A DNA stretch of 47,112 nt from Escherichia phage e4/1c, in the sequence record NC_024210.1; one strand, 5' to 3'. A model generated the notes under the pieces. That model worked only from the letters and a program-made list of their open reading frames with translations, was not told where the DNA came from and ran no database searches. Positions 23,829 through 45,675 of this stretch are shown piece after piece (within the stretch, counting starts at the first letter, position 1; each line of letters begins with the position of its first letter). Position numbers and translations under genes: made by a program.

Positions 23829-23863
23829 TAGCTCATCGATACGAGCATGGGGTACGGCAGGAA

Positions 23864-24235
23864 ATGAGATTAACAAAGATTGAGATTATGAAGGTTTTAT
23901 CAGGCCATCCTGATTACGAATTTAAGTTATGGGAGGTTGGGGGCTTACCGATAGAGGCTAGAGATCTTTCTTATATAATGTTTGGTCACGAGGAAGGTGG
24001 AAAGAAGTCAAAAATGACTTGTTGTAAGCAAGCTCTAGATAGGATGGTAAATGATGGTTATCTGGAGTCGTCAAAGGTAACTATAAAACCACATACAGTT
24101 GATAACAGAAGCATGAGGGCGACTGTAAGCAGGTACAGAGTTAAGGGCTCTAACATTAGTTGGTTTAAGAAAACTGACGAATTTGCGAAGTGCAGAGAGA
24201 TAACGCTAACTAAAGAGGATTACAAAAGTGAGTAA
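23864..24235 (+). CDS. hypothetical early protein (123 aa)
   Basis: first gene downstream of early promoter; possible DNA-binding fold not confirmable. Confidence 0.5.
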   Translation: MRLTKIEIMKVLSGHPDYEFKLWEVGGLPIEARDLSYIMFGHEEGGKKSKMTCCKQALDRMVNDGYLESSKVTIKPHTVDNRSMRATVSRYRVKGSNISWFKKTDEFAKCREITLTKEDYKSE

Positions 24236-24806
24236 AGACATGATTTCAATTGTTGATTATTGCAACGCTTTATCATTTAAGCCAGCATTAGTTATTAAGG
24301 CTATAGAAGAAATTATTTGCTTTGATAAAGGAAGCCTCGCTGAGTGGGTTGATGGGATTTGCTTTATGAACAAAAGATTAATGATAGCCGTAACAACAAA
24401 GATCGATACTTCAAAGATTTATCTGGTGCTTGATTATATGGATAGGGTTGAGTCTGAGGTTAAAGATAGATTCAACACAATGGTTCAACTAAAAATTGAG
24501 AATGCAGTGGCGAGAGTTAATAATCAGCTAGCAATTGAAATGGCTCATAGTGAGCGACTTCATAAGCAGGCTGATATCTACTACAAGCAATTATCAAGAC
24601 TTGAGAGCAAGAAAACTACAGCAGAGTGCGTAAAGGAAGCTAACGCATCAGAACGCCAGGCATGGAACGATAGATGCAATGAACGCGAGGATGTCTTAGT
24701 CGCTAGGGCAAACATTCAGTCTCTTGAGCAAAAGGAGAAGATACTTCTTGCTAGTTCTGGTATTTCGTACCAATCAAGAGAATTCCTGGCTATAGGTAAA
24801 AACTAA
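24228..24806 (+). CDS. hypothetical early protein (192 aa), coiled-coil C-terminus
   Basis: overlapping start (GTG 24228 with RBS AAGAGGA, or ATG 24240). Confidence 0.5.
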   Translation: MSKDMISIVDYCNALSFKPALVIKAIEEIICFDKGSLAEWVDGICFMNKRLMIAVTTKIDTSKIYLVLDYMDRVESEVKDRFNTMVQLKIENAVARVNNQLAIEMAHSERLHKQADIYYKQLSRLESKKTTAECVKEANASERQAWNDRCNEREDVLVARANIQSLEQKEKILLASSGISYQSREFLAIGKN

Positions 24807-24879
24807 TAGGCAAAACCAATTGGATAAACTTAGCTACGGATGGCATAGTTAAACCACACAAACAGAGAGAGATATAGAA

Positions 24880-25074
24880 ATGGCATACTTCATTATTCAA
24901 GAGCGCAACAATCCTATTTTCGGCACAGTCTACTATTGCGAGGATGGATCTGGATACTGCGACCACAAAGCTGATGCTAAGCGGTTCGATACGAAAGCTG
25001 AGGCTATGGAGTGGGGTAGCATCAACGATGAAGAGTTGGGTGGCATTGTTAAAGTGATTAAGGTTAAGGAATAA
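24880..25074 (+). CDS. hypothetical protein (64 aa)
   Basis: RBS GAGAGAGA; precedes exonuclease. Confidence 0.5.
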   Translation: MAYFIIQERNNPIFGTVYYCEDGSGYCDHKADAKRFDTKAEAMEWGSINDEELGGIVKVIKVKE

Positions 25075-25077
25075 ATC

Positions 25078-26046
25078 ATGAGCTTCAAGGTTTACACTAA
25101 CGATGAGTTAACCAATGAAGCCTACCATCAGGAGTCAGATCATGTGTCTGGTTCTGGTCTGGCTCACATTTTCTCAACTTGCCCAGCTGCACACAAGTTC
25201 TCTGAGCATGATGACGAGAGTAAGGCACTTAAGTTTGGTACGTTGGCCCACACGGTAATTCTTGAGAACTCTGCGTTCGACGCAACTTATTACCGGCAAC
25301 CAGCGCAGGAAGAGTTTGAAGACCTGATCACCAGCAAGACTGCATTAGCCGCAAGACTTAAGGCGATGGGAATTACAGGCACATCAGGTAAGGATTACCC
25401 TGAATTAATGGAGATGCTGACACTGACCGGTGAATCACTAAACGTATGGTGGGATATCCAGCGATCTAGCGAGGTTAAAGCTGAAGCCCGAGAGATTGTA
25501 TCAGCTAAGGACTTTGACACCGTACAGGCTATGAGAGAGGTTCTATGCGGCATTCCTGCTTACAATGCCATAGTTAACAGTAAAACCGCTCAGCGAGAGT
25601 TATCAATCTTCGGTGAGATTAATGAGTGCGGAGTTAAGGTAAGGCTGGACCATGTTGATGTTGTTGGTGATAAAGTTGTGATCACAGATTACAAGACAAC
25701 ATCAGACGCATCTCCTGAATGTTTTGGTAGGTTGGCGGCTAACTATGGCTACTTGCTTAAGATGAGTTTACAGCGCGATCTATTTGTGCGTGCGTTCAAT
25801 GAGAAGCGCAAGGTTGTTGTCCAGTTACTGGCTCAGGAGAAAAAGGCACCATACCTTCCAATGCTTTACACATTATCAGATGCGCACATTGCTTTAGGTC
25901 GCAGGCAGTATATGGAAGCATTGGCAACATACAAACAGTGCAAGAAGTTTAATGTCTGGCCCGGTTACAACGCAATTGAGGATTCTATGGAGTTGCAGGT
26001 TCCAGAGTTTTATATGAAGAAATACGAAAACAGCACGAATAGCTAA
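25078..26046 (+). CDS. PD-(D/E)xK-type exonuclease (recombination exonuclease)
   Basis: 322 aa; motif VRLDHVDVVGDKVVITDYKTT; directly upstream of Erf. Confidence 0.6.
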   Translation: MSFKVYTNDELTNEAYHQESDHVSGSGLAHIFSTCPAAHKFSEHDDESKALKFGTLAHTVILENSAFDATYYRQPAQEEFEDLITSKTALAARLKAMGITGTSGKDYPELMEMLTLTGESLNVWWDIQRSSEVKAEAREIVSAKDFDTVQAMREVLCGIPAYNAIVNSKTAQRELSIFGEINECGVKVRLDHVDVVGDKVVITDYKTTSDASPECFGRLAANYGYLLKMSLQRDLFVRAFNEKRKVVVQLLAQEKKAPYLPMLYTLSDAHIALGRRQYMEALATYKQCKKFNVWPGYNAIEDSMELQVPEFYMKKYENSTNS

Positions 26047-26073
26047 AACAACATTAAATCGGTGAGGTATATT
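26031..26073 (+). promoter_or_regulatory. degenerate palindrome-type promoter unit upstream of erf
   Basis: CAGCACGAATAGCTA (overlaps exonuclease C-terminus), 22 bp, TATATT, then CCTCATCGACAACGAGAGGA. Confidence 0.4.
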
Positions 26074-26101
26074 TACCTCATCGACAACGAGAGGAAGAAA
26101 T

Positions 26102-30468: not shown

Positions 30469-30492
30469 TATGTAAATTCTCCATTTGTAAAA

Positions 30493-30507
30493 TAGCACGA
30501 ATTGCTA
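30493..30507. promoter_or_regulatory. palindrome TAGCACGAATTGCTA in 5' region of tail fibre gene (atypical placement)
   Basis: perfect copy about 25 bp upstream of tail fibre start codon, downstream of a TACAAT -10-like hexamer on the minus strand. Confidence 0.4.
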
Positions 30508-30532
30508 AAGTGGATTGTAGCATCTTTCAGGC

Positions 30533-31534: not shown

Positions 31535-32008
31535 TTACTCTTTAGCTTTTCGTGCTGCTTCGTTTGCTGCTTTAATTTTTCGCCATGAGCGACACTCTGG
31601 TTTGGTGGCTAATTCAGCATCAGTAACCACGCGTAGCATGTGTCGCTTTTTGCAACGAAGAGTCAGAGGCTTACCGTTGCCGTCAAACTGAAGGTCTGGC
31701 CGGCAGAATGTAGCCCTAAATCCTTCACCAGTTCGCTTATATCGATTATGTGCAAGTTGAGCGCCGCGGGCTGAAATCATTCCTCGAGTGCACCACTCTT
31801 CCACGGTCTGGCGAGTAACCTTTAACTGCTTAGCGAGATTTGCCTTACTGCCATAGAAGTCCAATACAATCTCAAGTCGAGCCCTTAGTCCAGCCCTTAC
31901 TTCATCCTTTAATACATAGTACCCTGAAGGTCGTTTGCGTGGCTTTTTATCTTCCTTTCGGATGGTTCCGTTATTGCCGTTAAGAGTACGTTTATCGACT
32001 TGATTCAT
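31535..32008 (-). CDS. HTH DNA-binding protein, candidate transcriptional regulator
   Basis: 157 aa from ATG 32008 (RBS GAGGTGA); HTH-like SKANLAKQLKVTRQTVEEW; basic; divergent from helicase gene. Confidence 0.5.
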   Translation of the reverse strand: MNQVDKRTLNGNNGTIRKEDKKPRKRPSGYYVLKDEVRAGLRARLEIVLDFYGSKANLAKQLKVTRQTVEEWCTRGMISARGAQLAHNRYKRTGEGFRATFCRPDLQFDGNGKPLTLRCKKRHMLRVVTDAELATKPECRSWRKIKAANEAARKAKE

Positions 32009-32022
32009 TTTTATCACCTCAA

Positions 32023-32065
32023 TAGCACTTTTTGTTAAACATTAGTTTCATTGGTTGTTATTATA
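32023..32065 (+). promoter_or_regulatory. palindrome-type promoter unit upstream of helicase
   Basis: TAGCACTTTTTGTTA 32023-32037, about 21 bp, TATTAT, then AATCGAACGAAC leader; palindrome lies 15 bp upstream of divergent HTH gene start. Confidence 0.5.
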
Positions 32066-32101
32066 ACGTCAATCGAACGAACATGAAAGGCATTTAAAAA
32101 C

Positions 32102-34045
32102 ATGACTATGCGCTTGAAAACAATACAGAAACAGATTGAAGAAATGGGTGAAGACAAGATCAAAGAGATTCAAACTAAATTCACCTCATATAATGGCATG
32201 ATTCCTTATAGCTATCAGTGTGTAATGTATAATGAGATTGCCAAGCGTATTGGTAAATATAAGCACCCGTTCATCGCAATGGCTTCAGTATCAGCTGGTA
32301 AAACTCTAGTTTTTGCCATGGTCGCTAAGCGCTGCTCTGAGATTGGTTTGCCAATGCTTCTACTTGCTCGTCAGGCTGAGCTTGTTAGTCAGAATGCTTC
32401 TGAGATTTCAGATTATGGTGTGCCTAACTCCGTTTACTGCTCAGGTCTTGGAATTAAGTCATCTTATTTTCCTGTAATTGTAGGCTCTGAGGGTACAGTT
32501 GTTGGTGGCCTTGATAAGGCGCTTGGTGACTTCTGTCCTGCTGTTGTGGCAATAGATGAGTGTCATCATCTGGATGATCAAGATATTGCAGAAGCAATAG
32601 ACAATAATGAGACATCACAGCAAGCTAGAGATAAAGGCCGGAGCCAGTACACGATAATTCTCCTCACGTTAATGGAGAGATGCCGCGCTAAGTATGGGCG
32701 TGAACTTAGGATATTTGGCCTGACTGGCTCTCCTTTCCGCGGAACAACACCAATTGTTGTGGAGAACCTTAAGGAGCTTGGGTTCTGGCGTGAAACGGCG
32801 ACTAATATTGATACCAACTATCTGGTTGAGTTCGGCTCTGTTGTACCCACAAATTTCGGGTCTACTGATGGTGTTGGCTATGATCTGTCTGAGTTTGACA
32901 CTTCAGCAGATGATGGTGTGCAGGACTTCACGAAATCTCAGCTAGAGGCAATGGAGAAGAAGATTCAGCAGTCAGGCACAATGACAGCAGAGATAATGAA
33001 GAAGGTATGGTTGGCAGCAAAAGATCGTAACGGCGTTCTTGTAACTTGCGCAGGCGAGCGACACTGCAAGGAGGCCGCAAGCTACCTTCCAGAGGGTGAG
33101 ACTTACTGCATAATTACTGGCAAAACTGGAGAGAAGCAGCGCAAGGAGCTACTGGATAAGTGCTTCTCTGGGGATATTAAATTTTGTTTTCAAGTTCAAG
33201 CTCTGACTACTGGTGTGTCAGTTCCACCATGGGATACTAGTGTAATTCTTCGCAAGATTGGTAGCCTCACGCTCCTGGTTCAGCTACTTGGTCGAGGAAT
33301 GCGTAAGCTTAAGAAGCTCCATGAAGATAAAGGAATGGTCAAGAATGACCACCTTGTATTGGATTTTGCTGGAACTATGGATTCAATGGCATCCCTTTAC
33401 TTCAACCCAATACTTGAACAGGCCCAGTATCAGCTACGCAAAAGTAATGGTAAAGAGATGAAGCAGTGCCCTGTTTGCGGCACTGAAAATAGCTTCTACG
33501 CTCGTCGCTGTATGCGTGTTGATGAGAACAATAAAAGGTGCGAATATTTCTGGGTTAGCCGCACATGTGAAGACCAAAAAGACCCGAGGACAGGAAAGGT
33601 TACCGTGAAAGGCTGTGGAGTTCAGAATGACGTTGCAGCTAAGATTTGTAGAGGTTGTGATTGCACCCTTCTAGATCCGAATCTTAAGTTAAGCGGAAAA
33701 CATTACAGAAAAAATGATTGGTTTGACGTTGTGGATTTCAAGGTTGGACTAACAAAGAACCAATCAGGAATCATCTACAACTACGTCCTTGATGATGGCA
33801 TGGGTGGGACATTCAAAGCTCATGAGGTTTTCTTTGTAGAGTCTGACCATCGAGTATGTAAAACGCTCTGGTTGAACAATGGAATTAAAGGTCACGTAGT
33901 CGACATGAACGCTAAGCGATATATGGCTGCATATCGCAATGCTCGCAAGATTATGGAGTATGCGCAGTACATCCATGCTCCTAAGAGGGTAACTCACCGC
34001 AAGACCGCTAAAGGTGGCGATAATATTGCTAATAAGGAGTTCTAA
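32102..34045 (+). CDS. superfamily II DNA helicase with C-terminal zinc ribbon
   Basis: 647 aa; Walker A SVSAGKTLVF, DECH box VVAIDECHHL, motif VI QLLGRGMRK, C-terminal CPVCG ... CRGCDC. Confidence 0.8.
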   Translation: MTMRLKTIQKQIEEMGEDKIKEIQTKFTSYNGMIPYSYQCVMYNEIAKRIGKYKHPFIAMASVSAGKTLVFAMVAKRCSEIGLPMLLLARQAELVSQNASEISDYGVPNSVYCSGLGIKSSYFPVIVGSEGTVVGGLDKALGDFCPAVVAIDECHHLDDQDIAEAIDNNETSQQARDKGRSQYTIILLTLMERCRAKYGRELRIFGLTGSPFRGTTPIVVENLKELGFWRETATNIDTNYLVEFGSVVPTNFGSTDGVGYDLSEFDTSADDGVQDFTKSQLEAMEKKIQQSGTMTAEIMKKVWLAAKDRNGVLVTCAGERHCKEAASYLPEGETYCIITGKTGEKQRKELLDKCFSGDIKFCFQVQALTTGVSVPPWDTSVILRKIGSLTLLVQLLGRGMRKLKKLHEDKGMVKNDHLVLDFAGTMDSMASLYFNPILEQAQYQLRKSNGKEMKQCPVCGTENSFYARRCMRVDENNKRCEYFWVSRTCEDQKDPRTGKVTVKGCGVQNDVAAKICRGCDCTLLDPNLKLSGKHYRKNDWFDVVDFKVGLTKNQSGIIYNYVLDDGMGGTFKAHEVFFVESDHRVCKTLWLNNGIKGHVVDMNAKRYMAAYRNARKIMEYAQYIHAPKRVTHRKTAKGGDNIANKEF

Positions 34046-34461: not shown

Positions 34462-34492
34462 TACTTCATCGAAACGAAGAGAGAGAAACAAA

Positions 34493-35108: not shown

Positions 35109-35109
35109 A

Positions 35110-35152: not shown

Positions 35153-35182
35153 AATTACATCAGCAAATGAGAGGGTTAAGAG

Positions 35183-35838: not shown

Positions 35839-35866
35839 GTGTTCATCGAAACGAGAGGCGGCTCAG

Positions 35867-35935
35867 ATGAAAACATTACTACCATTGCTGGCAGTGCCAG
35901 TAACCTTTATAATCATGTACTTCATAACCTGCTAA
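35867..35935 (+). CDS. possible 22-aa hydrophobic leader peptide (uORF)
   Basis: ATG 8 nt after conserved ACGAGAGG RBS; MKTLLPLLAVPVTFIIMYFITC; ends 14 nt before main ORF start. Confidence 0.25.
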   Translation: MKTLLPLLAVPVTFIIMYFITC

Positions 35936-35949
35936 TAGGAAAATATAGA

Positions 35950-37077: not shown

Positions 37078-37081
37078 TGAA

Positions 37082-37267
37082 ATGTTAAAAGAAATACTAA
37101 GAATAATCCTTGGGGACAAGAGAGAATGCAAAAAATGCAGATTCGAGTATATAGATGACACAGACGAAGGTTCATTCTATGAGTGCAAGATTTGCGGAAA
37201 TGAAGTTTTGCTTGGTAAAAGTGGCGTTGTTAAGCAATCTAGAGTAACCGACTGCGATTATGACTAA
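37082..37267 (+). CDS. zinc-ribbon protein (61 aa)
   Basis: CKKC ... CKIC. Confidence 0.45.
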   Translation: MLKEILRIILGDKRECKKCRFEYIDDTDEGSFYECKICGNEVLLGKSGVVKQSRVTDCDYD

Positions 37268-37268
37268 A

Positions 37269-37311
37269 TAGCACTAATTGCCAAAACACAAATCAAAAGA
37301 TGGGGTATATT
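37269..37311 (+). promoter_or_regulatory. palindrome-type promoter unit
   Basis: TAGCACTAATTGCCA, 22 bp, TATATT, then CCATCAAAACAAAACGAGAGGA. Confidence 0.5.
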
Positions 37312-37344
37312 TACTCCATCAAAACAAAACGAGAGGATACAAAG

Positions 37345-37530
37345 ATGGCTAAGTTCACACAATCAGATGCACAGATTGAAGTTAAAGATGTTGGTTTTGG
37401 TAAGACATTTCGGATTGCACAGGCTTACGGAACTAGCGAAGAAGATGTAAAGGTTGACACTATTAACCTTACTGCTAAGAATGCACGTGAGATCGCTTAT
37501 GCAATCCTTGCGGCACTTGGAGGGCGTTAA
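37345..37530 (+). CDS. hypothetical protein (61 aa)
   Basis: ATG 37345 after conserved leader. Confidence 0.45.
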   Translation: MAKFTQSDAQIEVKDVGFGKTFRIAQAYGTSEEDVKVDTINLTAKNAREIAYAILAALGGR

Positions 37531-37718
37531 TGTTGCAAACAATTAAAGCTGATATGGTAAAGGTGGGTGATGAGGTTTTGTTCTCAAATTGCCAACGGCA
37601 AAAAGTTAAGGCCACAAGCCTTGAGTATTACCCTAGCTGTACGTTCGTAATGATTAAGACCATGGGCGGTAACTGCTTCCCAATTAATGTAAACACACTT
37701 ATTTGCGTAAACCGTTAA
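37530..37718 (+). CDS. hypothetical protein (62 aa)
   Basis: TAATG overlap with upstream gene. Confidence 0.4.
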   Translation: MLQTIKADMVKVGDEVLFSNCQRQKVKATSLEYYPSCTFVMIKTMGGNCFPINVNTLICVNR

Positions 37719-37730
37719 GAGATTATCAAA

Positions 37731-37904
37731 ATGACTAAATTATTCTGCGTTAGCAACAAATCAAAATCACTGCCTTTCACTGTAAACAACCCTTACAGTG
37801 GTGAGTACCAGGGGGATGGTAATTACAAGATTTATGGCGATGACATGACTTGGATCTTCGCCCCGATTGATGGAGAATTGGTGGAATTCATTATCGCAGA
37901 CTAA
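37731..37904 (+). CDS. hypothetical protein (57 aa)
   Basis: not in ORF track; ATG 37731, followed by terminator. Confidence 0.3.
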   Translation: MTKLFCVSNKSKSLPFTVNNPYSGEYQGDGNYKIYGDDMTWIFAPIDGELVEFIIAD

Positions 37905-37924
37905 CTTATAAGAAACATCAACTT

Positions 37925-37952
37925 GAAAACAGGCGGCCTTTAAGGCTGCCTT
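37925..37952 (+). terminator. rho-independent terminator
   Basis: ggcggcc-tttaa-ggctgcc plus T8. Confidence 0.65.
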
Positions 37953-38019
37953 TTTTTCGTTTATGTCAAAGTTTAATATCTGGTATTATTTAATCAAATC
38001 AACTTAAAGAGGCCGCAAC

Positions 38020-38235
38020 ATGAAGCATTTCTATGACGCAGCCGCCTTGTCCGGTAGCGGAGTAGCTATGGGCGGCGGCTTATCTGACAATACAATCATC
38101 GGCATTATTGGCTTAATCGTAGCCGTGTGCTTTGGTATCTTTGGAGCATGGCTGCGATGGAGGGACAGTAAGGCGCTACATAAAGCACTTGAGGATGGAG
38201 ATATCCGTGAGGCAATGAGAATCAGGAGTAAGTGA
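38020..38235 (+). CDS. holin
   Basis: 71 aa; hydrophobic segment IIGIIGLIVAVCFGIFGAWL, charged C-terminus; RBS AAAGAGG; first gene of lysis cassette. Confidence 0.7.
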   Translation: MKHFYDAAALSGSGVAMGGGLSDNTIIGIIGLIVAVCFGIFGAWLRWRDSKALHKALEDGDIREAMRIRSK

Positions 38236-38717
38236 TGAGTATAAAGAATAAAGTTATTGGCGGGGCCTTAGGCTCCGCTATTGCTATAGCTGTACCATTC
38301 CTGAACAAGTATGAGGGCGTTGAGTATAGGCCATACAAAGATGTAGCTGGGGTGTGGACTATTTGCGCAGGCATTACTGGCCCTGACGTTATTCGTGGCA
38401 AGGTTTACACTCAGCGAGAGTGTGATGCACTCCTTATGAAGCACCTGTCAATTCATCGCTCCGCTGTTGATAAAGCCCTGAAGGTTGATGTTCCAGTTAG
38501 CACCAGGGCGGCGCTGTACAGTTTTTCATTTAATGTTGGGACCAATGCAATGCGCAACTCAACTGTTATCAGACTCATGAATCGCGGCGATATTCGTGGT
38601 GGATGTGAGGCGCTATCAATGTGGAATAAAATTAGCGTTGGTGGCAAGAAGGTTGTGAGCAAAGGCCTGGTTAACAGGCGAAACGCGGAGATTAGGCTAT
38701 GCGTGTCGGAATTATAA
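38235..38717 (+). CDS. SAR endolysin (GH24 lysozyme-like)
   Basis: N-terminal weakly hydrophobic GGALGSAIAIAVPF (signal-arrest-release type) followed by YEGVEYRPYKDVAGVWTICAGITG with Glu/Asp/Thr catalytic pattern of T4-type lysozymes. Confidence 0.75.
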   Translation: MSIKNKVIGGALGSAIAIAVPFLNKYEGVEYRPYKDVAGVWTICAGITGPDVIRGKVYTQRECDALLMKHLSIHRSAVDKALKVDVPVSTRAALYSFSFNVGTNAMRNSTVIRLMNRGDIRGGCEALSMWNKISVGGKKVVSKGLVNRRNAEIRLCVSEL

Positions 38718-39103
38718 TTATTGCAATCACATTGCTGACCGGTTGCTCTGTTATGTCAGCTATCTCTGATTTATTACCGAGTAAGGATGGCATTGAAGCA
38801 ACAGCGCAGGTTGGTGAGTCTAACCAGAAGACGGGCGTTGGATTATCTAGCCAGATAGATAAATCAAGTTCAGTAGAAAGCGATATGCGCAACTCAACTA
38901 ACAGGGACGTAGATTCATCAAGCCAAAAAAAGACCGCTGCTACTGGTCTCTCAGCAGGCACAATAACAGCTGAAAAGATTGAAATTCACAGCACTGAAAA
39001 CTCTGGGGTTGACTCATTGGTCTGGGGTATTCTTGCAGGGTTAGTTTCAGGCTTGCTAACTTACTTCGCTTTAAGATTTGCAGGGAACAAAAAAGGAGCC
39101 TAA
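38699..39103 (+). CDS. unimolecular spanin (u-spanin, T1 gp11-like)
   Basis: N-terminal lipobox LLTGC plus single C-terminal TMD SLVWGILAGLVSGLLTYFAL. Confidence 0.7.
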   Translation: MRVGIIIIAITLLTGCSVMSAISDLLPSKDGIEATAQVGESNQKTGVGLSSQIDKSSSVESDMRNSTNRDVDSSSQKKTAATGLSAGTITAEKIEIHSTENSGVDSLVWGILAGLVSGLLTYFALRFAGNKKGA

Positions 39104-39118
39104 TGGCTCCTTTCTTTT
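39088..39118. terminator. bidirectional terminator between lysis cassette and minus-strand block
   Basis: aggagcc-taat-ggctcct flanked by A-run and T-run. Confidence 0.65.
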
Positions 39119-39452
39119 ATGCGAACAGTTGGTCGTCTGTCATTTCTTTTATGGTCATCATCTCATTAGTGTACTTATCGCTCTCACCTTCAAGGCATCT
39201 GAAGCTAAATTCGAAAGGTCGCTTCGTGCTTCCTTTGCTCCAGTAACTGCCATTAACTCCATCGATGTAACCTTCAGTCATGCATCTTGCCAGAAACTCC
39301 TTTGACGCAGATGATGCAAAGTAACGCGTATTAACTCCAGCTGCCTTAGCCATTCTTTCACATTCTTTGTGGCGGTAAATGAATGCCGCCAGGTGCTGCC
39401 TGTTAAACCTTTCGTAGCTCTCGCAGAACTTGAACACATCAAGGATGAACAT
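39117..39452 (-). CDS. hypothetical protein (111 aa), last gene of ATPase operon
   Basis: 5 nt downstream of ATPase gene stop on the same strand. Confidence 0.5.
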   Translation of the reverse strand: MFILDVFKFCESYERFNRQHLAAFIYRHKECERMAKAAGVNTRYFASSASKEFLARCMTEGYIDGVNGSYWSKGSTKRPFEFSFRCLEGESDKYTNEMMTIKEMTDDQLFA

Positions 39453-39456
39453 TTAA

Positions 39457-41040
39457 TTACCCCAGCAGCCGTGGATTGATATATACCTTGTCACCAATCA
39501 GGCAGGTATAGTTTTTCTCATCAAGCATCGGCAGTAAGTGGTCTTTAATTTTAGCCATAACACCAGCCTGTGACTCGAAAGGTCGAACCTTACGCGCAGC
39601 TTCATAAAGTGAACGCAAACCCACAACTCCTTTACTGTTCTTGCCTTGCTTGATAAGGATATCAATTAACTTGTTCATCTCAGCGTTATCGCCAGCATGA
39701 CCAGCTGCGTTAGCTGAAGATAAGTAAGTCTTACTAAGTTCTTCAAACATCAACAAAGCCTCTTGCATGGTTTCTAGTTCAATCTCCCTGGACTTCTGCG
39801 GACTACCACCATTCTCGTTAAACCAGTTACGGATAGTATGCAGAACCGAAGCGAGGCGAATCACTTGCTTGTCCATTTTACCTAACGCGCCACGAAGCAT
39901 TGTATGTGAATACTTCCCACCATCAGCAAGGTGTGGCTCCATTTCCTGTCGAGCACGGTTAAGGTACTTCATTGCTGAGTTACTAACAGTCAACTTCACA
40001 TCTTGCTCACTCATAATTTCATGAACAAGACGGAAGTAATCAGCCTTCAACGCTCCGTCAATCGGCTCATATGTTGACTCGCCATTATCATCGACGAAAA
40101 CACGCTCACCAAGGAATGACTTTTCACGCACAAGCAAGAAACGTTCGGATACACCAATACCGCGAGCACCAGCATTCATGATTGCGACTATTGTTTCATC
40201 CTGCGCAATTACAGAAATACACCCCATAGCAATAAAGCTCATGTTGTTCTCTGCGTTCGCACGCGCGATAGATACGCTACCAGCATCCCAGGCCTTCAGA
40301 ACAAGCTCGCTGTTAGTTTTCTTCGAGCCATCACCGTAAGTCATACCAAGAAGTGAGTTAACACTTGTCGCTTCATCAGAAATCACGGAGAAGTTACCCT
40401 GGCGGTTGTTGATTCGCGCAAGACCTTCCGGTGTAGTATCAGATACCGGAAACACAATGTCGCACAGCTTTTCTAACTTCTCTTCCAACTCCTCTTTCTC
40501 TTCGAATAATCCAGCCATCTCAGATGGTGACTTCTCTTGCTTCATTTCTTTTGCCAGGGCTGACAATTTAGCCATAATCTTCTTACGGTCACGCTTTCGA
40601 ATCTCATTTAGTCGCTCGGTCTCAGAAATCATTGGTGCGAGTGCAAGTGAGTTAATTGCTGATTTACCAGTTGATGGTGGCTGACTGGTGACTACATACA
40701 GTGATGTTGGTTGTTGAGTTCCGTGATACTCAACCGTAAAGCGACCTAACATAGCTGCCGAGACGCAACCAAGGAAGTGCATATAAGCAGATGATTCAGG
40801 AAACTGAACAGAACGAGCAGTATTGCTTGATAGTTTGCCAACTACATCATAGTCGTTACCCAGCGAGATAACAGGATACTTGTCGCCAGTAGAATCAATC
40901 TCAACCGGAGCTTTCCAGAATGATGCGCTCTGGCGATAACCGTTCGCATTAATAGCAACACGTAAAGGAGTTAATCCATCCTGAGCGGCAACAGCCATTA
41001 CTTGTTCAACAGTCAATTTGTCATCATTAAAATCAAACAT
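39457..41040 (-). CDS. P-loop NTPase with shared N- and C-terminal modules (paralog of 44156..44704)
   Basis: Walker A VTSQPPSTGKSA, Walker B FSVISDEA; N-terminal 42 aa about 70 percent identical to ORF 44156..44704; start ATG 41040 (MFDF) or 41046. Confidence 0.65.
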   Translation of the reverse strand: MFDFNDDKLTVEQVMAVAAQDGLTPLRVAINANGYRQSASFWKAPVEIDSTGDKYPVISLGNDYDVVGKLSSNTARSVQFPESSAYMHFLGCVSAAMLGRFTVEYHGTQQPTSLYVVTSQPPSTGKSAINSLALAPMISETERLNEIRKRDRKKIMAKLSALAKEMKQEKSPSEMAGLFEEKEELEEKLEKLCDIVFPVSDTTPEGLARINNRQGNFSVISDEATSVNSLLGMTYGDGSKKTNSELVLKAWDAGSVSIARANAENNMSFIAMGCISVIAQDETIVAIMNAGARGIGVSERFLLVREKSFLGERVFVDDNGESTYEPIDGALKADYFRLVHEIMSEQDVKLTVSNSAMKYLNRARQEMEPHLADGGKYSHTMLRGALGKMDKQVIRLASVLHTIRNWFNENGGSPQKSREIELETMQEALLMFEELSKTYLSSANAAGHAGDNAEMNKLIDILIKQGKNSKGVVGLRSLYEAARKVRPFESQAGVMAKIKDHLLPMLDEKNYTCLIGDKVYINPRLLG

Positions 41041-41079
41041 TATCATCTCTCTCTAAATGCCCCGAAGGGGCTTGATTAT

Positions 41080-41259
41080 TTACTTGATACGAACTTCAAT
41101 CATCTGACCTTTATGAGGAAGATACAGCTTTGCGCGACCTCTAATCATTACGGTGATGATATTCTCCTTAAGGTCAACGTGAAGTACTTTGCGGAACAGA
41201 GGCCCCATTTTTACCATCATGCCAGGTTTGATGTTTTCGATAGTAGTCATGATATCCAT
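41080..41259 (-). CDS. hypothetical small protein (59 aa), first gene of ATPase operon
   Basis: not in ORF track; MDIMTTIENIKPGMMVKMGPLFRK...; hairpin separates it from ATPase gene. Confidence 0.35.
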   Translation of the reverse strand: MDIMTTIENIKPGMMVKMGPLFRKVLHVDLKENIITVMIRGRAKLYLPHKGQMIEVRIK

Positions 41260-41297
41260 TTTTTAGCCCTTTTAATGTATTTCGTTTCGATGAAGAG

Positions 41298-41341
41298 AAT
41301 ATATCAATTTTTGTTGTTAAGTTCTTTAGCAAAAAGTGCTA
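41298..41341 (-). promoter_or_regulatory. palindrome-type promoter unit for ATPase operon
   Basis: minus-strand TAGCACTTTTTGCTA, 23 bp, TATATT, TTCATCGAAACGA. Confidence 0.5.
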
Positions 41342-41458
41342 TTAAAGACCAACCAGACATTTGCCAACTACAACAGCGATTGCGCCCATGAAGCCAAAGA
41401 AACCAAACTTAATTACTTGTTCCATTACCGCATCAACTGCTTTAGAGATGTTTTTCAT
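41342..41458 (-). CDS. small membrane protein (38 aa)
   Basis: MKNISKAVDAVMEQVIKFGFFGFMGAIAVVVGKCLVGL; start chosen at ATG 41458 with RBS AAGGTGA. Confidence 0.4.
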   Translation of the reverse strand: MKNISKAVDAVMEQVIKFGFFGFMGAIAVVVGKCLVGL

Positions 41459-41495
41459 TTTGTTCACCTTAGTGTTTGTCTTCTTGATGGAAACA

Positions 41496-41539
41496 AATAT
41501 ACCCGCCGAAGCGGGTAGTGTCATTAGCAAAAAGTGCTA
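41496..41539 (-). promoter_or_regulatory. palindrome-type promoter unit
   Basis: minus-strand TAGCACTTTTTGCTA, 23 bp containing hairpin cccgc-ttcg-gcggg, TATATT. Confidence 0.45.
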
Positions 41540-41540
41540 T

Positions 41541-41894
41541 TTATGAATATGAGCTTTCGAACTTGTAGAGGCCATAACCAACATCAAAGCCAACTTCTTC
41601 ATCACGCGTCAACTGCCAGCCCTCGCCGTCTTCATCATAAATATACCCAGCGTTACGACCAAGTGATGCAGTCATTGATACCTGGTAACGCTTACCCTTA
41701 CTGAAACTCTTCTTGAGTGGTGACTTGTGGTTCACGAAAGTGCAAAGCAAAGTCTTGGTCTTGACGTAACGACCCCGGCCAGTGAGATTTTGCCATTTAC
41801 CATGAATCTTGATTTGCTCAATACCATCTTTAACGCGAGCTTTAAACAGATTGTTATCTGAGCTGATCCAGTTTTTAGTGATAGTGGTAGCCAT
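41541..41894 (-). CDS. hypothetical protein (117 aa)
   Basis: RBS AAGGAAAA; second gene of a two-gene unit. Confidence 0.5.
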   Translation of the reverse strand: MATTITKNWISSDNNLFKARVKDGIEQIKIHGKWQNLTGRGRYVKTKTLLCTFVNHKSPLKKSFSKGKRYQVSMTASLGRNAGYIYDEDGEGWQLTRDEEVGFDVGYGLYKFESSYS

Positions 41895-41919
41895 TACTAT
41901 TTTCCTTTTTGGTTTGTTA

Positions 41920-42222
41920 TTAGTTAGCGTTATGACGTTCGATATAGTCGCGGATTGTTTCGCCTACGCTTTTAGCGGCACCAAAAGTGCCCTTTGCGTG
42001 GCGTGAGTCGCGGTACGTCTGGAAGAATTTACGAGCGATGTTTGCGAACATTGAACCAGTCACGCGAGCATCACCAAAATTTGTTTCGATAGCGTTGCTG
42101 ATGCCATCCTTGAACTCATTTTCAGTCATGAACATCTCTGCCATGCCAGCAGTCTCGAAAAGATTAGCTAATTCATTCATGTTGTTATGGTCGGCGGCTG
42201 TAAACAGGTTCATGTTAATCAT
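41920..42222 (-). CDS. hypothetical protein (100 aa)
   Basis: RBS AAGGAA after conserved leader. Confidence 0.5.
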   Translation of the reverse strand: MINMNLFTAADHNNMNELANLFETAGMAEMFMTENEFKDGISNAIETNFGDARVTGSMFANIARKFFQTYRDSRHAKGTFGAAKSVGETIRDYIERHNAN

Positions 42223-42256
42223 CTTAGTGATTCCTTAGTTTCGTTTCGATGAGATG

Positions 42257-42299
42257 AATATACAGTAAAAGCCCCGAAGGGCTTTAGCGATTCGTGCTA
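42257..42299 (-). promoter_or_regulatory. palindrome-type promoter unit
   Basis: minus-strand TAGCACGAATCGCTA, 22 bp containing hairpin, TATATT, TCATCGAAACGAAAC. Confidence 0.5.
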
Positions 42300-42449
42300 T
42301 TTCTTTGCTGCTTTTGCAATTGCCTTCTGGACGATATTGAAGCTCTCAATCAAATCTTCTTTGAAGTAGTCACCAACAGGCCAACCCTTACCGCTGTACT
42401 TGGCTATGGTTTCTAGATCGTAATAGTTCAAGTCAGATGGCTTTAGCAT
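42297..42449 (-). CDS. hypothetical small protein (50 aa)
   Basis: not in ORF track; start adjacent to upstream stop (TAAATG); stop TAG is first triplet of palindrome. Confidence 0.3.
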   Translation of the reverse strand: MLKPSDLNYYDLETIAKYSGKGWPVGDYFKEDLIESFNIVQKAIAKAAKK

Positions 42450-42689
42450 TTACTTCACCTCATCAAAAGTTGCAACACCAGGGATAAACATTCCAACCTT
42501 CCAGCCAGAGATAGCAATCCATCCAGAATCGTGCTTGTGCGGTCTCTCGGCGCCATTAATTACCCACTCGTTCGGGATTGTCTTACCGTTAATTATTAGA
42601 GGCTCAGCGTCGTATATAGAGCCTTTTACGAATGGTGTTAAAATCTTCTTGTCGGTGCTTTGGATGACGTTAGTGCAGCTAATCTTCAT
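42450..42689 (-). CDS. hypothetical protein (79 aa)
   Basis: ATGA overlap with upstream gene. Confidence 0.45.
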   Translation of the reverse strand: MKISCTNVIQSTDKKILTPFVKGSIYDAEPLIINGKTIPNEWVINGAERPHKHDSGWIAISGWKVGMFIPGVATFDEVK

Positions 42690-42916
42690 ACCAACACCTC
42701 GAACTCTTCATCAGAAATCTCACAAAGTTCATGTTTATAGATTGCAATAATATCATCGAAAACCACATCTTTTTTAGACTGAATCTGATAGGTTCCAGTG
42801 ATCATCTTGAAAGCTACAGCAATCTCACCTTCTTCATAACCCATCTCGCGCAAGCTTGTTGAGTCTTCATCATACTTATAGTCAACGTTAGTTAATTTAA
42901 TTTTTACCTGTTCCAT
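42686..42916 (-). CDS. hypothetical acidic protein (76 aa)
   Basis: first gene of minus-strand block; RBS GAGGAGAT. Confidence 0.5.
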   Translation of the reverse strand: MEQVKIKLTNVDYKYDEDSTSLREMGYEEGEIAVAFKMITGTYQIQSKKDVVFDDIIAIYKHELCEISDEEFEVLV

Positions 42917-42943
42917 GTCTATCTCCTCGCTGTTGATGTAATT

Positions 42944-42987
42944 AATATACCCAATCAGGACTGAATGTTCATTAGCAAAAAGTGCTA
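42944..42987 (-). promoter_or_regulatory. palindrome-type promoter unit (first of minus-strand block)
   Basis: minus-strand TAGCACTTTTTGCTA, 23 bp, TATATT. Confidence 0.5.
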
Positions 42988-43011
42988 TTCGTTCGATTTA
43001 TGGATTGTTGC

Positions 43012-43105
43012 GGATATTGCAATGATTAGATTCACCTTTGCGCACATAGCAATATTGCATCTATTGCAATGATTTTCTGTACTGTTGCGAAAATGGCAAT
43101 GATTG
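43012..43105. repeat. cluster of short palindromic iteron-like sites (ATTGCAATGATT family)
   Basis: TATTGCAATGATT at about 43015 and 43063, GCAATATTGC at about 43049, GGCAATGATT at about 43094. Confidence 0.6.
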
Positions 43106-43179
43106 ATGGATTGATGGAATGAAGGAGGACGCATCAACTGGTTGGTTGGTTTTCTCGCTCGCTCGGAGATAATCATTTG

Positions 43180-43330
43180 TATACGCGTAGTCCGCTGTCT
43201 ACCGATTGTCGACCGTATCCAGATTTACATTTGATACGCCTTGATACAATCCATATACATTAAAACATCCTTATATATAAAGGACTTAGACTATTATTAT
43301 TATTATATATAGTATTATGTATATATGGCG
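43180..43330. repeat. regulatory repeat region B (homologous to 23316-23470)
   Basis: TATACGCGTA plus 60-bp near-identical AT-rich segment shared with region A. Confidence 0.7.
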
Positions 43331-43381
43331 TATCCTTTGTACGCCACTATATAGGTGGGTTTGCTTAAATTTCTATTTTTA

Positions 43382-43398
43382 TTCCTACATTGTAGGAA
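43382..43398. promoter_or_regulatory. perfect 17-bp palindrome TTCCTACATTGTAGGAA with adjacent half-site
   Basis: perfect inverted repeat; half-site TTGTAGGAA repeated at about 43409. Confidence 0.5.
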
Positions 43399-43545
43399 TG
43401 GGACTACGTTGTAGGAAAATATAGGGTGTATCGCCAGAAATGCACTAATAATTTGGATACGGCGAGTACGCCATGACTACATCCAGCAATGAAGCGGCCT
43501 ACGGATGAGAAAATGTAATTATTTATCGAATACATAAAAAATACC

Positions 43546-43574
43546 TTGATATACACGTATCTACTTGCTATAGT
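43546..43574 (+). promoter_or_regulatory. sigma70-type early promoter (TTGATA, 17 bp, TATAGT)
   Basis: canonical spacing; followed by CCATCGAAACG leader and gene at 43614. Confidence 0.6.
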
Positions 43575-43613
43575 CACTCCATCGAAACGCGATAAAAAAC
43601 GAGAGGAATTAAA

Positions 43614-44156
43614 ATGAGCAAGTCAACACTTGGTGAAGTAATTCGATTCATGGCTAAAAAAGCACTCCAGTCAGAGAGCAAGGAGTGCAGAGTTCCAGTT
43701 CGTTCTATATTTAAAGAGGTGCGCGGAGAGGATTACCCAGAGGTTGACGTTAATGAGAAGGATGGATTAAAGAAAACAATTAAAAGTCGATCAATGACTG
43801 AGTTAAAAAACTCATACATTTACAATACAGTTTCACGCATGACTGAGCTGAGAGAAGCGAATGTTAGAGCTAGATATAAATTCATCTGGCTTGATGAAGA
43901 CAAAGAGGAGACAACCCCAGCTGCGTATGACGGTGACGGCGCAGATAAATACTTGGTAATCTATATTGAGAATGGCTCAGTCGAACCCAGGGCAAAGCAA
44001 AAGGAGAAGGCAAAGCAGGAGCAGGCCGCAATCGATAGGTTTAAGGCTCGACTTCTCAAGCTATCACCTAACGTGCTGGAGTTTGAAGGCGATGAGCTGA
44101 CTGGCGCAGTTAAGGCTATCCGCATGTATCAAGAGATGATCAAGGAGTTTAACTAA
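43614..44156 (+). CDS. hypothetical early protein (180 aa)
   Basis: RBS GAGAGGA; first gene after promoter. Confidence 0.5.
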   Translation: MSKSTLGEVIRFMAKKALQSESKECRVPVRSIFKEVRGEDYPEVDVNEKDGLKKTIKSRSMTELKNSYIYNTVSRMTELREANVRARYKFIWLDEDKEETTPAAYDGDGADKYLVIYIENGSVEPRAKQKEKAKQEQAAIDRFKARLLKLSPNVLEFEGDELTGAVKAIRMYQEMIKEFN

Positions 44157-44704
44157 TGTTTGATTTCGACGAAGATAAGTTAACTGATGACCAGGTGATG
44201 GAAGTCGCCAGGCAAGATAACCTGCCGCCACTTCGTGTGGCAATCAATGCTAATGGATACCGCCAATCATTCAAGTTCTGGCCGAGCGCCGAAGAGATGC
44301 TGTGCGTCAAGTTGAGCTACAAATACGGCGTCGTAGTGCATAAAATTAAGCACTTATGCGGCAATACAGGAATGCTTTACGTGAGCCAGCTATACCGGCA
44401 GATCAGAGAGGTCCAGCCATTCGTTGGTCGTGATGACATATTCAACGACCTTAGTAATATCATTCTGCCGTCACTCCAGGACGCCGGAATCACATGCCGG
44501 ATTGGCGATCAGGTGTTTGCGCATCCGTACCTGGTGGAAATGGATGAACGAGACGTGTACAGATGGTGCAGTCAGTACCTATCCGACGCACCAAGCTCAC
44601 ACTACGTGCGACCGCAGACAACAATCCATGGCTATGATGCCGATGAGGTGGAGAAGGCCATCCAGTTCTACCGGAAAGCGAAAGCTCTCCTGAATGGTGA
44701 ATAG
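44156..44704 (+). CDS. short paralog of P-loop NTPase gene (N- and C-terminal modules only, no ATPase core)
   Basis: MFDFDEDKLTDDQVMEVARQDNLPPLRVAINANGYRQS matches N-terminus of ORF 39457..41040; C-terminal LY..R.V.PF...LP.L...TC.IGD.V..P also shared. Confidence 0.6.
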   Translation: MFDFDEDKLTDDQVMEVARQDNLPPLRVAINANGYRQSFKFWPSAEEMLCVKLSYKYGVVVHKIKHLCGNTGMLYVSQLYRQIREVQPFVGRDDIFNDLSNIILPSLQDAGITCRIGDQVFAHPYLVEMDERDVYRWCSQYLSDAPSSHYVRPQTTIHGYDADEVEKAIQFYRKAKALLNGE

Positions 44705-44744
44705 CACGAATTGATAAACAAAAAACAGGGTATTCAGCTATGAT
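44702..44744 (+). promoter_or_regulatory. palindrome-type promoter unit
   Basis: TAGCACGAATTGATA starting on stop codon TAG, 22 bp, TATGAT, then CTATCAACCAAACGAGAGGA. Confidence 0.5.
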
Positions 44745-44775
44745 TACCCTATCAACCAAACGAGAGGAATAAAAT

Positions 44776-45009
44776 ATGATCGTAATTAACCTGTCTGAAA
44801 GGCAAGCAAAAGAGATTAAAGCGGTAATGATGCACTGCCTTAACCGAAAGCTATTTAGCTCCTCAGAATCGCTTACAGAGGTCGTAGAGCAGATTCGCAA
44901 TCAAGAGTTTGAAGATGTTCTGCCGTGGGAAGAGGATTTAGCCTGGCTTGAGTACGAGAAGATTTGCACGGTTCTTTCAGGTTGCCAGCTGGCTAGCCAA
45001 TACAAGTGA
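44776..45009 (+). CDS. hypothetical protein (77 aa)
   Basis: ATG after conserved leader. Confidence 0.45.
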   Translation: MIVINLSERQAKEIKAVMMHCLNRKLFSSSESLTEVVEQIRNQEFEDVLPWEEDLAWLEYEKICTVLSGCQLASQYK

Positions 45010-45127
45010 CCATCTACGAACACAAATTTAGTAGCAGCGGCATACCAATGTTGCTGCACTACGTAAGCGAAAAATACGCAATATTGATGCAGAAGACGCA
45101 TGGCGGGACAATAGCGAGGATTGAGAT

Positions 45128-45283
45128 ATGAATGAATTTAAAATTGAAGATATTATTCTTGATGATGCTGTTTATTATCACGAGAATGATGGCTTTGATA
45201 CTGAATGTATGGCTGATGATGGCATTGCTTTGATTATCGAGCGAGATAAGTTCGGCGAGATCGTTCAGTGGAGTGAGCAATAA
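45128..45283 (+). CDS. small highly acidic protein (51 aa)
   Basis: not in ORF track; RBS GAGGA; 15 of 51 residues Asp/Glu. Confidence 0.35.
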   Translation: MNEFKIEDIILDDAVYYHENDGFDTECMADDGIALIIERDKFGEIVQWSEQ

Positions 45284-45603
45284 TGAGCAAATACGACAAA
45301 GAGATTATTGGCTTGGATGGAACCAAGACGACAGTTGATGTATATCGTGTTATCGCAGCATTCGGCGTAACCGACCCAGCGTTACAGCACGCCATCAAAA
45401 AGGTACTGTGCAGCGGCATTCGAACGCGACACAAGGGTTACACCACTGACATCAATGAGGCCATTGTGTCGCTTCAAAAGGCTGTGGAATTTCATGGGCA
45501 AAGAGGCGCGCATGTTCAGGAGATTATTGATAAGTATCGCGATGGCTCTAAGATTCAGAAGGTAGTAAGCAATAGGAATTACCTAGATAGCTGGAGCAAA
45601 TAG
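45283..45603 (+). CDS. hypothetical protein (106 aa)
   Basis: TAATG overlap; stop TAG is first triplet of next palindrome. Confidence 0.45.
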   Translation: MSKYDKEIIGLDGTKTTVDVYRVIAAFGVTDPALQHAIKKVLCSGIRTRHKGYTTDINEAIVSLQKAVEFHGQRGAHVQEIIDKYRDGSKIQKVVSNRNYLDSWSK

Positions 45604-45643
45604 CACGAATTGCTAAACATAAATCGCAAGGATGCGTTACTAT
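45601..45643 (+). promoter_or_regulatory. palindrome-type promoter unit
   Basis: TAGCACGAATTGCTA, 22 bp, TACTAT, then TTATCGAAATGAGACGAGGA. Confidence 0.5.
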
Positions 45644-45675
45644 TAATTTATCGAAATGAGACGAGGAAAGATTAA

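Follow-up and report, generated by a model that had tools for sequence, protein, structure and literature searches.

The sequence CATCGAAACGA recurs at the predicted start of many transcripts of Escherichia phage e4/1c, whose genome record (NC_024210.1; 47,112 nucleotides, hereafter the window) we analysed together with its relatives. The motif stands at a fixed distance from the −10 hexamer of a recurrent promoter cassette, keeps this place independently of the cassette's palindrome and of the Shine-Dalgarno (SD) sequence, is conserved across the phage family under purifying selection, and opens leaders with little structure. We give a probability of about 45% to the reading that it is the initial transcribed sequence of the cassette promoter, doubling as the 5′ part of a minimal open leader; the start site itself, and effects on initiation and promoter escape, are predictions from the sequence. 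Set between what is known and what is new, the finding is best filed as a well-defined conserved initial transcribed sequence plus minimal leader on phage promoters used by the host polymerase.

By sequence, the window belongs to a T1-like coliphage, a siphovirus of the Drexlerviridae, subfamily Rogunavirinae, in the Rogue1/JK06/AHP42 group: a megablast search with positions 23000–45800 returned Escherichia phages AHP42, JK06, AHS24, AKS96, C119 and Rogue1 at ~89% identity. Going by the annotation of these relatives, structural genes fill the first half, and genes for recombination, replication and lysis lie in the second half with many small genes. For comparisons across the family we scanned T1, TLS, Rtp, Klebsiella phage Skenny, Cronobacter phage ESP2949-1 and Rogue1, plus 120 IMG/VR loci retrieved by their palindrome-plus-−10 pattern. 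The scan yielded 501 promoter units, of which 447 were unique and 265 non-redundant (<75% identity). A at −11 and T at −7 were required when picking units and are hence present in all of them; transcribed positions played no part in the selection.

A motif fixed to the predicted transcript start

At no more than one mismatch, CATCGAAACGA matches the window seven times against 0.65 expected, a number that none of 100 dinucleotide shuffles reached. Four near-exact copies lie on the plus strand (23834–23844, 34467–34477, 35844–35854 and 43580–43590) and three on the minus strand (23252–23262, 41282–41292 and 42241–42251). The original prediction, which had described a leader shared by many early transcripts at eleven places, was thus right that the motif is real, and every one of its places holds the sequence described: alongside the seven there are four diverged variants (26080, ATCGACAACGAGAGGA; 37318, ATCAAAACAAAACGAGAGGA; 44751, ATCAACCAAACGAGAGGA; 45650, ATCGAAATGAGACGAGGA), which retain ATC at +1 to +3 and AACGA(G)AGGA beside the SD. 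We add four units to that list (32071, AATCGAACGAAC; 35159, ATCAGCAAATGAGAGG; 42937 on the minus strand, ATCAACAGCGAGGAG; 41488 on the minus strand, ATCAAGAAGAC). That all these transcripts are early is an assumption; genes for lysis and tail fibres lie in the same region, and in Rtp the motif heads a gene of the tail cluster (Rtp 16303).

The palindrome ATAGCACnnnTTGnTAAA occurs 15 times in the window at up to two mismatches, with a TAnnnT hexamer following 19–21 nucleotides (nt) later in 14 cases. The motif begins 6 nt past the −10 hexamer, its A being the predicted +1, and ATC stands at exactly the seventh base after the hexamer in 13 of 16 window units, two more being shifted by one base (32071 and 41488); in these units, positions +1 to +7 hold 0.3–1.2 bits each. 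The sole unit in the structural-gene half, that of the palindrome at 2175, lacks the motif. The distance from motif to start codon varies between 21 and 34 nt, so what anchors the motif is the transcript start rather than the SD. Anchoring by the SD was rejected on the same ground: among the ATCGA units the predicted 5′ untranslated region (UTR) ranges from 22 to 34 nt with the motif always at +1. Two window promoters have an ordinary −35 box and no palindrome (TTGACC-17-TAAATT, 23800–23828; TTGATA-17-TATAGT, 43546–43574), and both carry the motif, as had been noticed before. Since it keeps the same distance to the −10 behind −35/−10 promoters in the window and in relatives alike, the earlier conclusion that it is a feature of the transcript and not of the palindrome stands.

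The same anchoring holds across the family, where conservation of the motif had been proposed as a check. Drexlerviridae sequence totalling 1.29 Mb holds 158 copies of ATCGAAAC, of which 108 begin exactly 6 nt after a (T/C)AnnnT hexamer; 103 of these have the ATAGCACnnnTTGnTAAA palindrome, and five lack it, with TTGCAT or TTGATA −35 boxes in its place. Outside this position 50 copies remain, close to the 47.6 expected from base composition. Positioned copies on the one hand and a remainder at chance level on the other argue that the motif exists only as a start-site element.

Aligning the units placed the palindrome at −50 to −33 (centre around −41.5) with a constant 20-nt spacer, and a TAnnnT-type hexamer lies 19–21 nt past the palindrome in 109 of 125 palindrome units from seven genomes. 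In the logo of the 265 units, the spacer is nearly featureless (<0.15 bit per position at −30 to −18), followed by G−14 (81%), T−15 in only 37%, T−12 (85%) and a pyrimidine-rich 6-nt discriminator ending in C−1 (74%). Beyond the start come A+1 (81%), T+2 (55%), C+3 (52%), G+4 (46%), A at +5, +6 and +7 (66–75%), C+8 (47%) and A at +10 and +11 (63–67%), and then the SD. The most frequent first 8-mer is ATCGAAAC (48/265), ahead of ATCGACAA (15) and ATCAACCA (10). The hexamer is of sigma70 type, with A at −11 and T at −7. Between the TTGnTA of the palindrome and the −10 are 22 nt, so that no −35 hexamer is present at the usual spacing of 16–18 nt, and a consensus −35/−10 scan of 32000–46000 returned 29 pairs against 31.2 in shuffles, scoring most palindrome units as non-promoters. 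No gene for a phage RNA polymerase or sigma factor is annotated in T1, TLS, Rtp, Rogue1, Skenny or AHP42, open reading frames of the window not having been searched singly. An Rfam search at gathering score matched the leaders to no family, its only hit in the window being a tRNA (46736–46808).

Part of this cassette had been noticed before. The 2024 re-annotation of TLS lists 21 occurrences of aaATAGCACnnnTTGnTAAAA, which run with transcription ~76 nt ahead of start codons, mentions similar repeats in T1, Rtp and Rogue1, states that TLS encodes neither a phage RNA polymerase nor a sigma factor, and leaves the role of the repeat open between a stoperator, an enhancer site and an UP-like element (PMC11447400). 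The aaATAGCACnnnTTGnTAAAA repeat of TLS, T1, Rtp and Rogue1 is the upstream element of the same cassettes, and its ~76-nt distance fits the sum of palindrome, 20 nt, −10, 6 nt and a ~25-nt leader. The leader motif differs from the repeat in that it also occurs alone. In the passages covered of the TLS paper (PMC11447400) and in the Rogue1 and AHP42 papers we found no description of a −10 at fixed distance, a start motif or a leader, nor, in those of the TLS paper, of G−14 or a hairpin around the −10. The AHP42 record labels some of these hexamers 'TTGACA(N26)TATAAT'.

Purifying selection and RNA hairpins around the start

Selection on the start was gauged by counting polymorphisms in 32 orthologue clusters of close relatives (129 members). 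The polymorphic fraction was 0.069 in the palindrome, 0.219 in the spacer, 0.062 at −14 to −7 and 0.167 in the discriminator; downstream, it was 0.081 at +1 to +10, 0.082 at +11 to +18, 0.16 at +19 to +26 and 0.185 in coding sequence. The low polymorphism of the first ten transcribed bases, which were not used in picking the units, thus shows purifying selection of about the same strength as at the −10, and hitch-hiking with duplicated cassettes is unlikely. Family-wide presence and constraint together confirm that the motif is conserved in relatives.

The predicted leaders themselves are short (median 25 nt) and less structured than their shuffles (minimum free energy [MFE] −2.6 vs −3.5 kcal/mol), and a 5′-terminal stem-loop formed by TCG-AAA-CGA was rejected on these values. 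The region from palindrome to start, by contrast, is strongly structured: the MFE of −34 to +4 is −9.9 against −4.3 in shuffles, with z < −2 in 60 of 94 units. In 77 of the 265 non-redundant units the −10 stands between the arms of a perfect inverted repeat of 6 bp or more, a count for which swapping downstream halves between units gave a mean of 10.3 and a maximum of 18 (300 permutations). Its usual geometry pairs −24 to −19 with −6 to −1, and 55 distinct arm pairs were seen, GGGGTA/TACCCC, AAGGCC/GGCCTT and GCGGGC/GCCCGC among them. In another 84 units a hairpin lies entirely upstream of the −10, often as a true terminator whose T-run overlaps the hexamer.

Folding of −34 to +4 favours the sense strand in 186 units and the antisense strand in 74 (p 6e-16), and among stems enclosing the −10 the split is 71 to 16; single stem mismatches are mostly G.T (13) and rarely A.C (2). 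The hairpins are thus sense-strand RNA structures, and must consequently exert their effect in read-through RNA coming from the upstream gene. A DNA cruciform presenting the −10 in its loop is ruled out by the same two observations, the preference for sense over antisense folding and the G.T-rich mismatches. The stems apparently use promoter positions left unconstrained by the polymerase, namely spacer and discriminator, and the hairpin could serve as a 3′ stabiliser of the upstream message, as an insulator for the downstream leader or as the partner of a processing site.

The original prediction had overlooked that the CATC part of the motif is often the 3′ arm of a hairpin enclosing the −10 hexamer. 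In the clade of the window the arms read GGATG…CATC, and the CATC of the leader is thus partly a 3′ arm (26045–26083 and 37285–37320). We nevertheless rejected the idea that the leader is merely such an arm: the start motif is independent of the hairpin, ATCGA being as common in units with an enclosing stem (24 of 77) as in those with an upstream hairpin (24 of 84) or with neither (20 of 104).

Initiation weighed against other roles

Pieced together, the cassette runs from an upstream stop codon, often inside ATAGCACnnnTTGnTAAA (−50 to −33), through the 20-nt spacer, G−14 and a TAnnnT −10 without −35 to the 6-nt pyrimidine-rich discriminator, then A+1-T-C-G-A-A-A-C-G-A, the SD and an ATG ~25 nt from the start. 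CATCGAAACGA would then comprise the start-site context (C−1, A+1) and the initial transcribed sequence to about +11. E. coli favours starts at a purine that lies 7 nt after the −10 and directly follows a pyrimidine, and host sigma70 RNA polymerase would start precisely at a lone purine between pyrimidines: the purine share is 83% at +1, 9–24% at −3 to −1 and ~30% at +2 and +3 (265 units). The T-poor, TG-free and purine-rich first ten bases would favour fast promoter escape, and the same bases would open a short, U-poor and unstructured leader that leaves the ribosome-binding site accessible. In the units, the first ten transcribed bases are 63% purine, T makes up 4–11% at +4 to +17, and TG at +5 to +7 occurs in only 0–2 of 265. 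Published work gives the initial transcribed sequence control over promoter escape and output (PMC5961368; PMC12464699). Randomised sequences link slow escape to two or three T's within the first ~7 nt and to TG near +5/+6, and fast escape to stable RNA/DNA hybrids and stronger stacking (Heyduk and Heyduk 2018, PMC5961368).

Similar first bases, with an A start after C, are found in T7 A1 (cc, then ATCGAGAGGGA), T7 A3 (cac, then ATGAAACGACAG) and lambda pL (cac, then ATCAGCAGG). The first genes behind these promoters lie far downstream, and the likeness therefore points to initiation rather than to translation. T7 A1 and A3, lambda pL and T5 N25 are single promoters, whereas the T1-like start is repeated at least a dozen times per genome and throughout the family. 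Two further classes of phage promoter invite comparison. Like the extended −10 promoters of middle and late genes in Thermus phage P23-45, which gp39 spares (PMC3950348), the T1-like units would use the host polymerase without a −35; they share G at −14 (81% here) and the absence of a −35 at 16–18 nt, but differ in having T−15 in only 37% of units and a conserved dyad at −50 to −33. As in promoters of T7-class single-subunit polymerases (conserved from −17 to +6), conservation crosses the start into the transcript; unlike in these, a sigma70-type −10 lies upstream and no phage polymerase is annotated in the six relatives.

Several points weigh against assigning the motif to initiation. The position of +1 follows from −10 geometry only, because no 5′-end mapping was found: the searchable literature held neither 5′-end mapping nor a transcriptome for any T1-like phage, the genome papers of Rtp and T1 lying outside the search. 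Fast escape requires no one sequence, and one 8-mer shared by phages of Escherichia, Klebsiella and Cronobacter suggests that the sequence itself is read. Both the constraint that persists at +11 to +18 (0.082), past the region governing escape, and the avoidance of U over the whole leader suit a role at the RNA level at least equally. CG steps at +3/+4 (88/265) and +8/+9 (70/265) are Y-G steps, which could promote initial pausing, and the resemblance to T7 and lambda is based on three promoters.

A role at the RNA level would make the motif a 5′-end element: a pppAUCGAAAC end and a U-poor leader would shield the mRNA from decay that depends on the 5′ end or, in a processing variant, mark a site at which read-through RNA is cut, so that processed and primary mRNAs would share one 5′ end. 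We hold this to be unlikely, though several observations fit it. RppH favours a purine as second nucleotide (PMC8833179), whereas 71% of units have a pyrimidine at +2; RNase E cleaves single-stranded RNA two nucleotides upstream of uridine (PMC5222698), and U is found at +2 in 55% of units (79% in the window) and almost nowhere from +4 to +17. The hairpin directly upstream is selected as a sense-strand RNA structure, its stems most often end at −1, so that in read-through RNA the leader follows a stable stem, and the constraint spans the leader up to the SD. The consensus for RNase E cleavage has a purine at −2 and U at +3, however, where the units show a pyrimidine and C. Avoidance of U at +13 to +18 is partly just the SD, and the strict spacing from the −10 is more simply due to a start site. 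RNase III sites of the T7 intercistronic type would call for a stem of ~20 bp; the stems here mostly have 6–9 bp, and one has 11 bp. Nothing specific supports the suggestions that the motif is an RNase site or the target of a phage factor, and both are retained as minor possibilities.

More speculatively, the identical first 8–11 bases may be a tag by which a phage-encoded or a hijacked host factor, reading either the start-site DNA or the RNA 5′ end, treats the phage messages as one class, an idea we regard as doubtful. If true, phage messages could be shut off together or selectively spared from decay, or primary and processed transcripts could share a 5′ end, with the sense-strand hairpin ending at −1 as a partner element.

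Somewhat less probable again is a recognition site in the narrower sense, at which a phage or host protein would bind DNA at +1 to +11 as an operator that overlaps the start, or the 5′ end of the RNA as a mark of phage messages, and switch genes on or off jointly. Sequence-specific contacts are not known beyond about +2 of host-polymerase promoters, and the stereotypy is unusual for such a promoter: the exact 8-mer heads 18% of the non-redundant units, in phages of several host genera, TCGAAACGA forms a small dyad (TCG-N3-CGA), and purifying selection equals that on the −10. Against a binding site speak the gradation of the motif into variants (ATCGACAA, ATCAACCA, ACACCAAA, ATTGAAGC) without clear on/off classes and the mixture of genes it heads, which includes those for replication, lysis, lipoprotein and, in Rtp, the tail region, so that no gene class is marked; no candidate binding protein for the motif was identified. 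To our knowledge, the leader fully matches neither the sites of IHF, Cra or PurR nor the consensus of promoters for capping with NAD (nicotinamide adenine dinucleotide).

Translational enhancement, the first function proposed for the leader, is improbable. An A- and C-rich sequence ahead of the SD would raise ribosome loading, and the leaders are indeed A-rich (49% A at +1 to +12), unstructured and often CAA-like, resembling the A- and C-rich unstructured stretches before the SD in the T7 gene 10 epsilon and CA- or A-rich enhancers. In several units AAACGAGAGGA abuts the SD despite a start-proximal copy farther upstream (37318, 43581 and 44751). Unlike in those enhancers, however, the anchor is the start: the spacing to the −10 is constant, whereas that to the SD or ATG is not. 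Within 32 nt of the ATG, AACGA is present in 44% of promoter-proximal but only 5.5% of internal genes, on which count a general enhancer of ribosome sites was rejected. Complementarity to 16S ribosomal RNA was no higher than in shuffles (best runs 5–7 nt), and pairing of the leader with it was rejected as well. The similar starts of T7 A1/A3 and lambda pL, finally, lie far from any start codon.

Least probable is a motif without function of its own, carried along in cassettes spread by duplication or gene conversion: recent copies do exist (34415–34477 and 45597–45659 are 83% identical over 63 nt), but in the same cassettes the spacer shows no conservation from unit to unit (<0.15 bit), and its polymorphism among orthologues is 2.7 times that at +1 to +10, and the motif also occurs behind unrelated −35/−10 promoters.

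Promoter units, palindrome and neighbouring elements

The promoter units of the window, with predicted leaders running from +1 to the base before the ATG, and three of its −10 hairpins are collected in Table 1. On inspection of the window units, the type of leader did not follow the palindrome subtype (GAA, TTT or TAA centre).

Table 1 Predicted leaders and −10 hairpins of the window
Feature	Position	Strand	Leader or arms	Associated elements
Predicted leader	23228–23261	−	ATCGAAACGAAACATACTTAATAAGGAATACAAA	Palindrome 23295–23312; −10 TATAGT 23268–23273
Predicted leader, sigma70-type, without palindrome	23835–23863	+	ATCGATACGAGC...	−35 TTGACC 23800–23805; 17-nt spacer; −10 TAAATT 23823–23828
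Predicted leader	26080–26101	+	ATCGACAACGAGAGGAAGAAAT	Palindrome 26030–26047; −10 TATATT 26068–26073
Variant leader, helicase gene; new unit	32071–32101	+	AATCGAACGAAC...	Palindrome 32022–32039; −10 TATTAT 32059–32064
Predicted leader	34468–34492	+	ATCGAAACGAAGAGAGAGAAACAAA	Palindrome 34418–34435; −10 TATAGT 34456–34461
Variant leader; new unit	35159–35182	+	ATCAGCAAATGAGAGGGTTAAGAG	Palindrome 35109–35126; −10 TATATT 35147–35152
Predicted leader	35845–35866	+	ATCGAAACGAGAGGCGGCTCAG	Palindrome 35795–35812; −10 TATAGT 35833–35838
Variant leader	37318–37344	+	ATCAAAACAAAACGAGAGGATACAAAG	Palindrome 37268–37285; −10 TATATT 37306–37311
Predicted leader	41260–41291	−	ATCGAAACGAAATACATTAAAAGGGCTAAAAA	Palindrome 41325–41342; −10 TATATT 41298–41303
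Variant leader, A at 8th base after −10; new unit	41459–41488	−	ATCAAGAAGACAAACACTAAGGTGAACAAA	Palindrome 41523–41540; terminator hairpin between palindrome and −10
Predicted leader	42223–42250	−	ATCGAAACGAAACTAAGGAATCACTAAG	Palindrome 42283–42300; −10 TATATT 42257–42262; terminator-type hairpin GCCCTTCGGGGC upstream of −10
Variant leader; new unit	42917–42937	−	ATCAACAGCGAGGAGATAGAC	Palindrome 42971–42988; −10 TATATT 42944–42949
Predicted leader, sigma70-type, without palindrome	43581–43613	+	ATCGAAACGCGATAAAAAACGAGAGGAATTAAA	−35 TTGATA 43546–43551; −10 TGcTATAGT ending at 43574
Variant leader	44751–44775	+	ATCAACCAAACGAGAGGAATAAAAT	Palindrome 44701–44718; −10 TATGAT 44739–44744
Variant leader	45650–45675	+	ATCGAAATGAGACGAGGAAAGATTAA	Palindrome 45600–45617; −10 TACTAT 45638–45643
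Contrast unit without motif, structural half	2225–2241	+	AAATGGAGGCGATTAAG	Palindrome 2175–2192; −10 TATTAT 2213–2218
−10 hairpin, predicted in read-through RNA	26045–26083	+		11 bp; free energy (dG) −16.8; encloses −10 and extends to +4
−10 hairpin	37285–37320	+	GATGGGGTA/TACTCCATC	dG −13.1
−10 hairpin	44713–44750	+	AGGGTA/TACCCT	dG −11.4

The dyad at −50 to −33 suggests an activator, its position fitting that of a class II activator-dependent promoter. The only candidate is a helix-turn-helix protein encoded at 31535–32017 on the minus strand, divergently from the helicase gene, with weak Cro/CI-type matches and homologues in 823 phage records. Immediately ahead of its start codon is the palindrome at 32022–32039, to which the protein may therefore bind and thereby control its own gene; at 32059–32065 the two divergent −10 hexamers share bases.

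The upstream gene of many units ends at a TAG or TAA within the palindrome, the repeat thus overlapping coding sequence in extremely compact cassettes; such stops are found at 26044–26046, 35796–35798, 44702–44704 and 45601–45603 of the window and at 1451–1453, 2270–2272, 3536–3538, 6532–6534 and 38954–38956 of T1. Other palindromes have neither −10 nor leader (30492–30509 on the plus strand and 31541–31558 on the minus strand; 8362 and 25021 in T1; 24908 in TLS), some of them sitting on the SD or start codon of late genes or beside terminators, and the repeat is thus not only a promoter element. The right half-site has a single variable base, at −37 (e.g. 32036, 35123 and 35809), reading TTGCTA or TTGTTA (C 53%, T 35%). 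This base pairs with the invariant G of the left half, and a change from G-C to G.U would suit an RNA stem or a tolerant protein site; the sense strand folds slightly better than the antisense strand (p 0.009).

Two large non-coding regions, 23300–23860 and 43000–43610, share a 99-nt repeat (23372–23470 and 43226–43324; 77% identical) containing a (TTA)n(TA)n tract, and a 24-bp repeat, GGTCAATAAAAATGTTGAC, stands in tandem at 23762–23805. Each of the two regions is flanked by a leftward palindrome promoter and a rightward sigma70-type promoter with leader, and they may function as an origin or in immediate-early control. Another leader motif, CAACCAATCAG(A)GGA, recurs right at the SD in several genera (T1 1450, 4864 and 47117; TLS 5136 and 48919; Skenny 4648 and 39944; ESP 18709) and is absent from the window. 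Terminators of the structural half (2729–2764, 12241–12276 and 16419–16454) are followed directly by SD and ATG or by an extended −10; one such element, TGTTATAAT at ~12262–12270 with an A/C-rich leader ...AAACACGAGAGGA, is a different, palindrome-free type of promoter. Among the structural genes, the one corresponding to Rogue1 gp21 ('tail fiber protein') contains collagen-like Gly-X-Y repeats (GGT GAT AAA ...; 7398–8192). The tRNA gene found by Rfam (56 bits) has a positional counterpart in relatives that is annotated as tRNA-Arg.

T1-like phages are common contaminants and candidates for therapy, yet their transcription is almost unstudied. As far as its accessible text goes, the published account ends at an unexplained 21-nt repeat; given here is the full cassette, consisting of the repeat, a fixed spacer, G−14 with the −10, a discriminator, a stereotyped start and a short leader, often with an RNA hairpin around the −10, and with it come predicted exact 5′ ends for ~15 transcripts per genome. 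Should the motif prove to act through RNA polymerase, promoter design could draw on a natural 'good' initial transcribed sequence that has been selected repeatedly; action through RNA or a factor would instead add a new layer of phage gene control.

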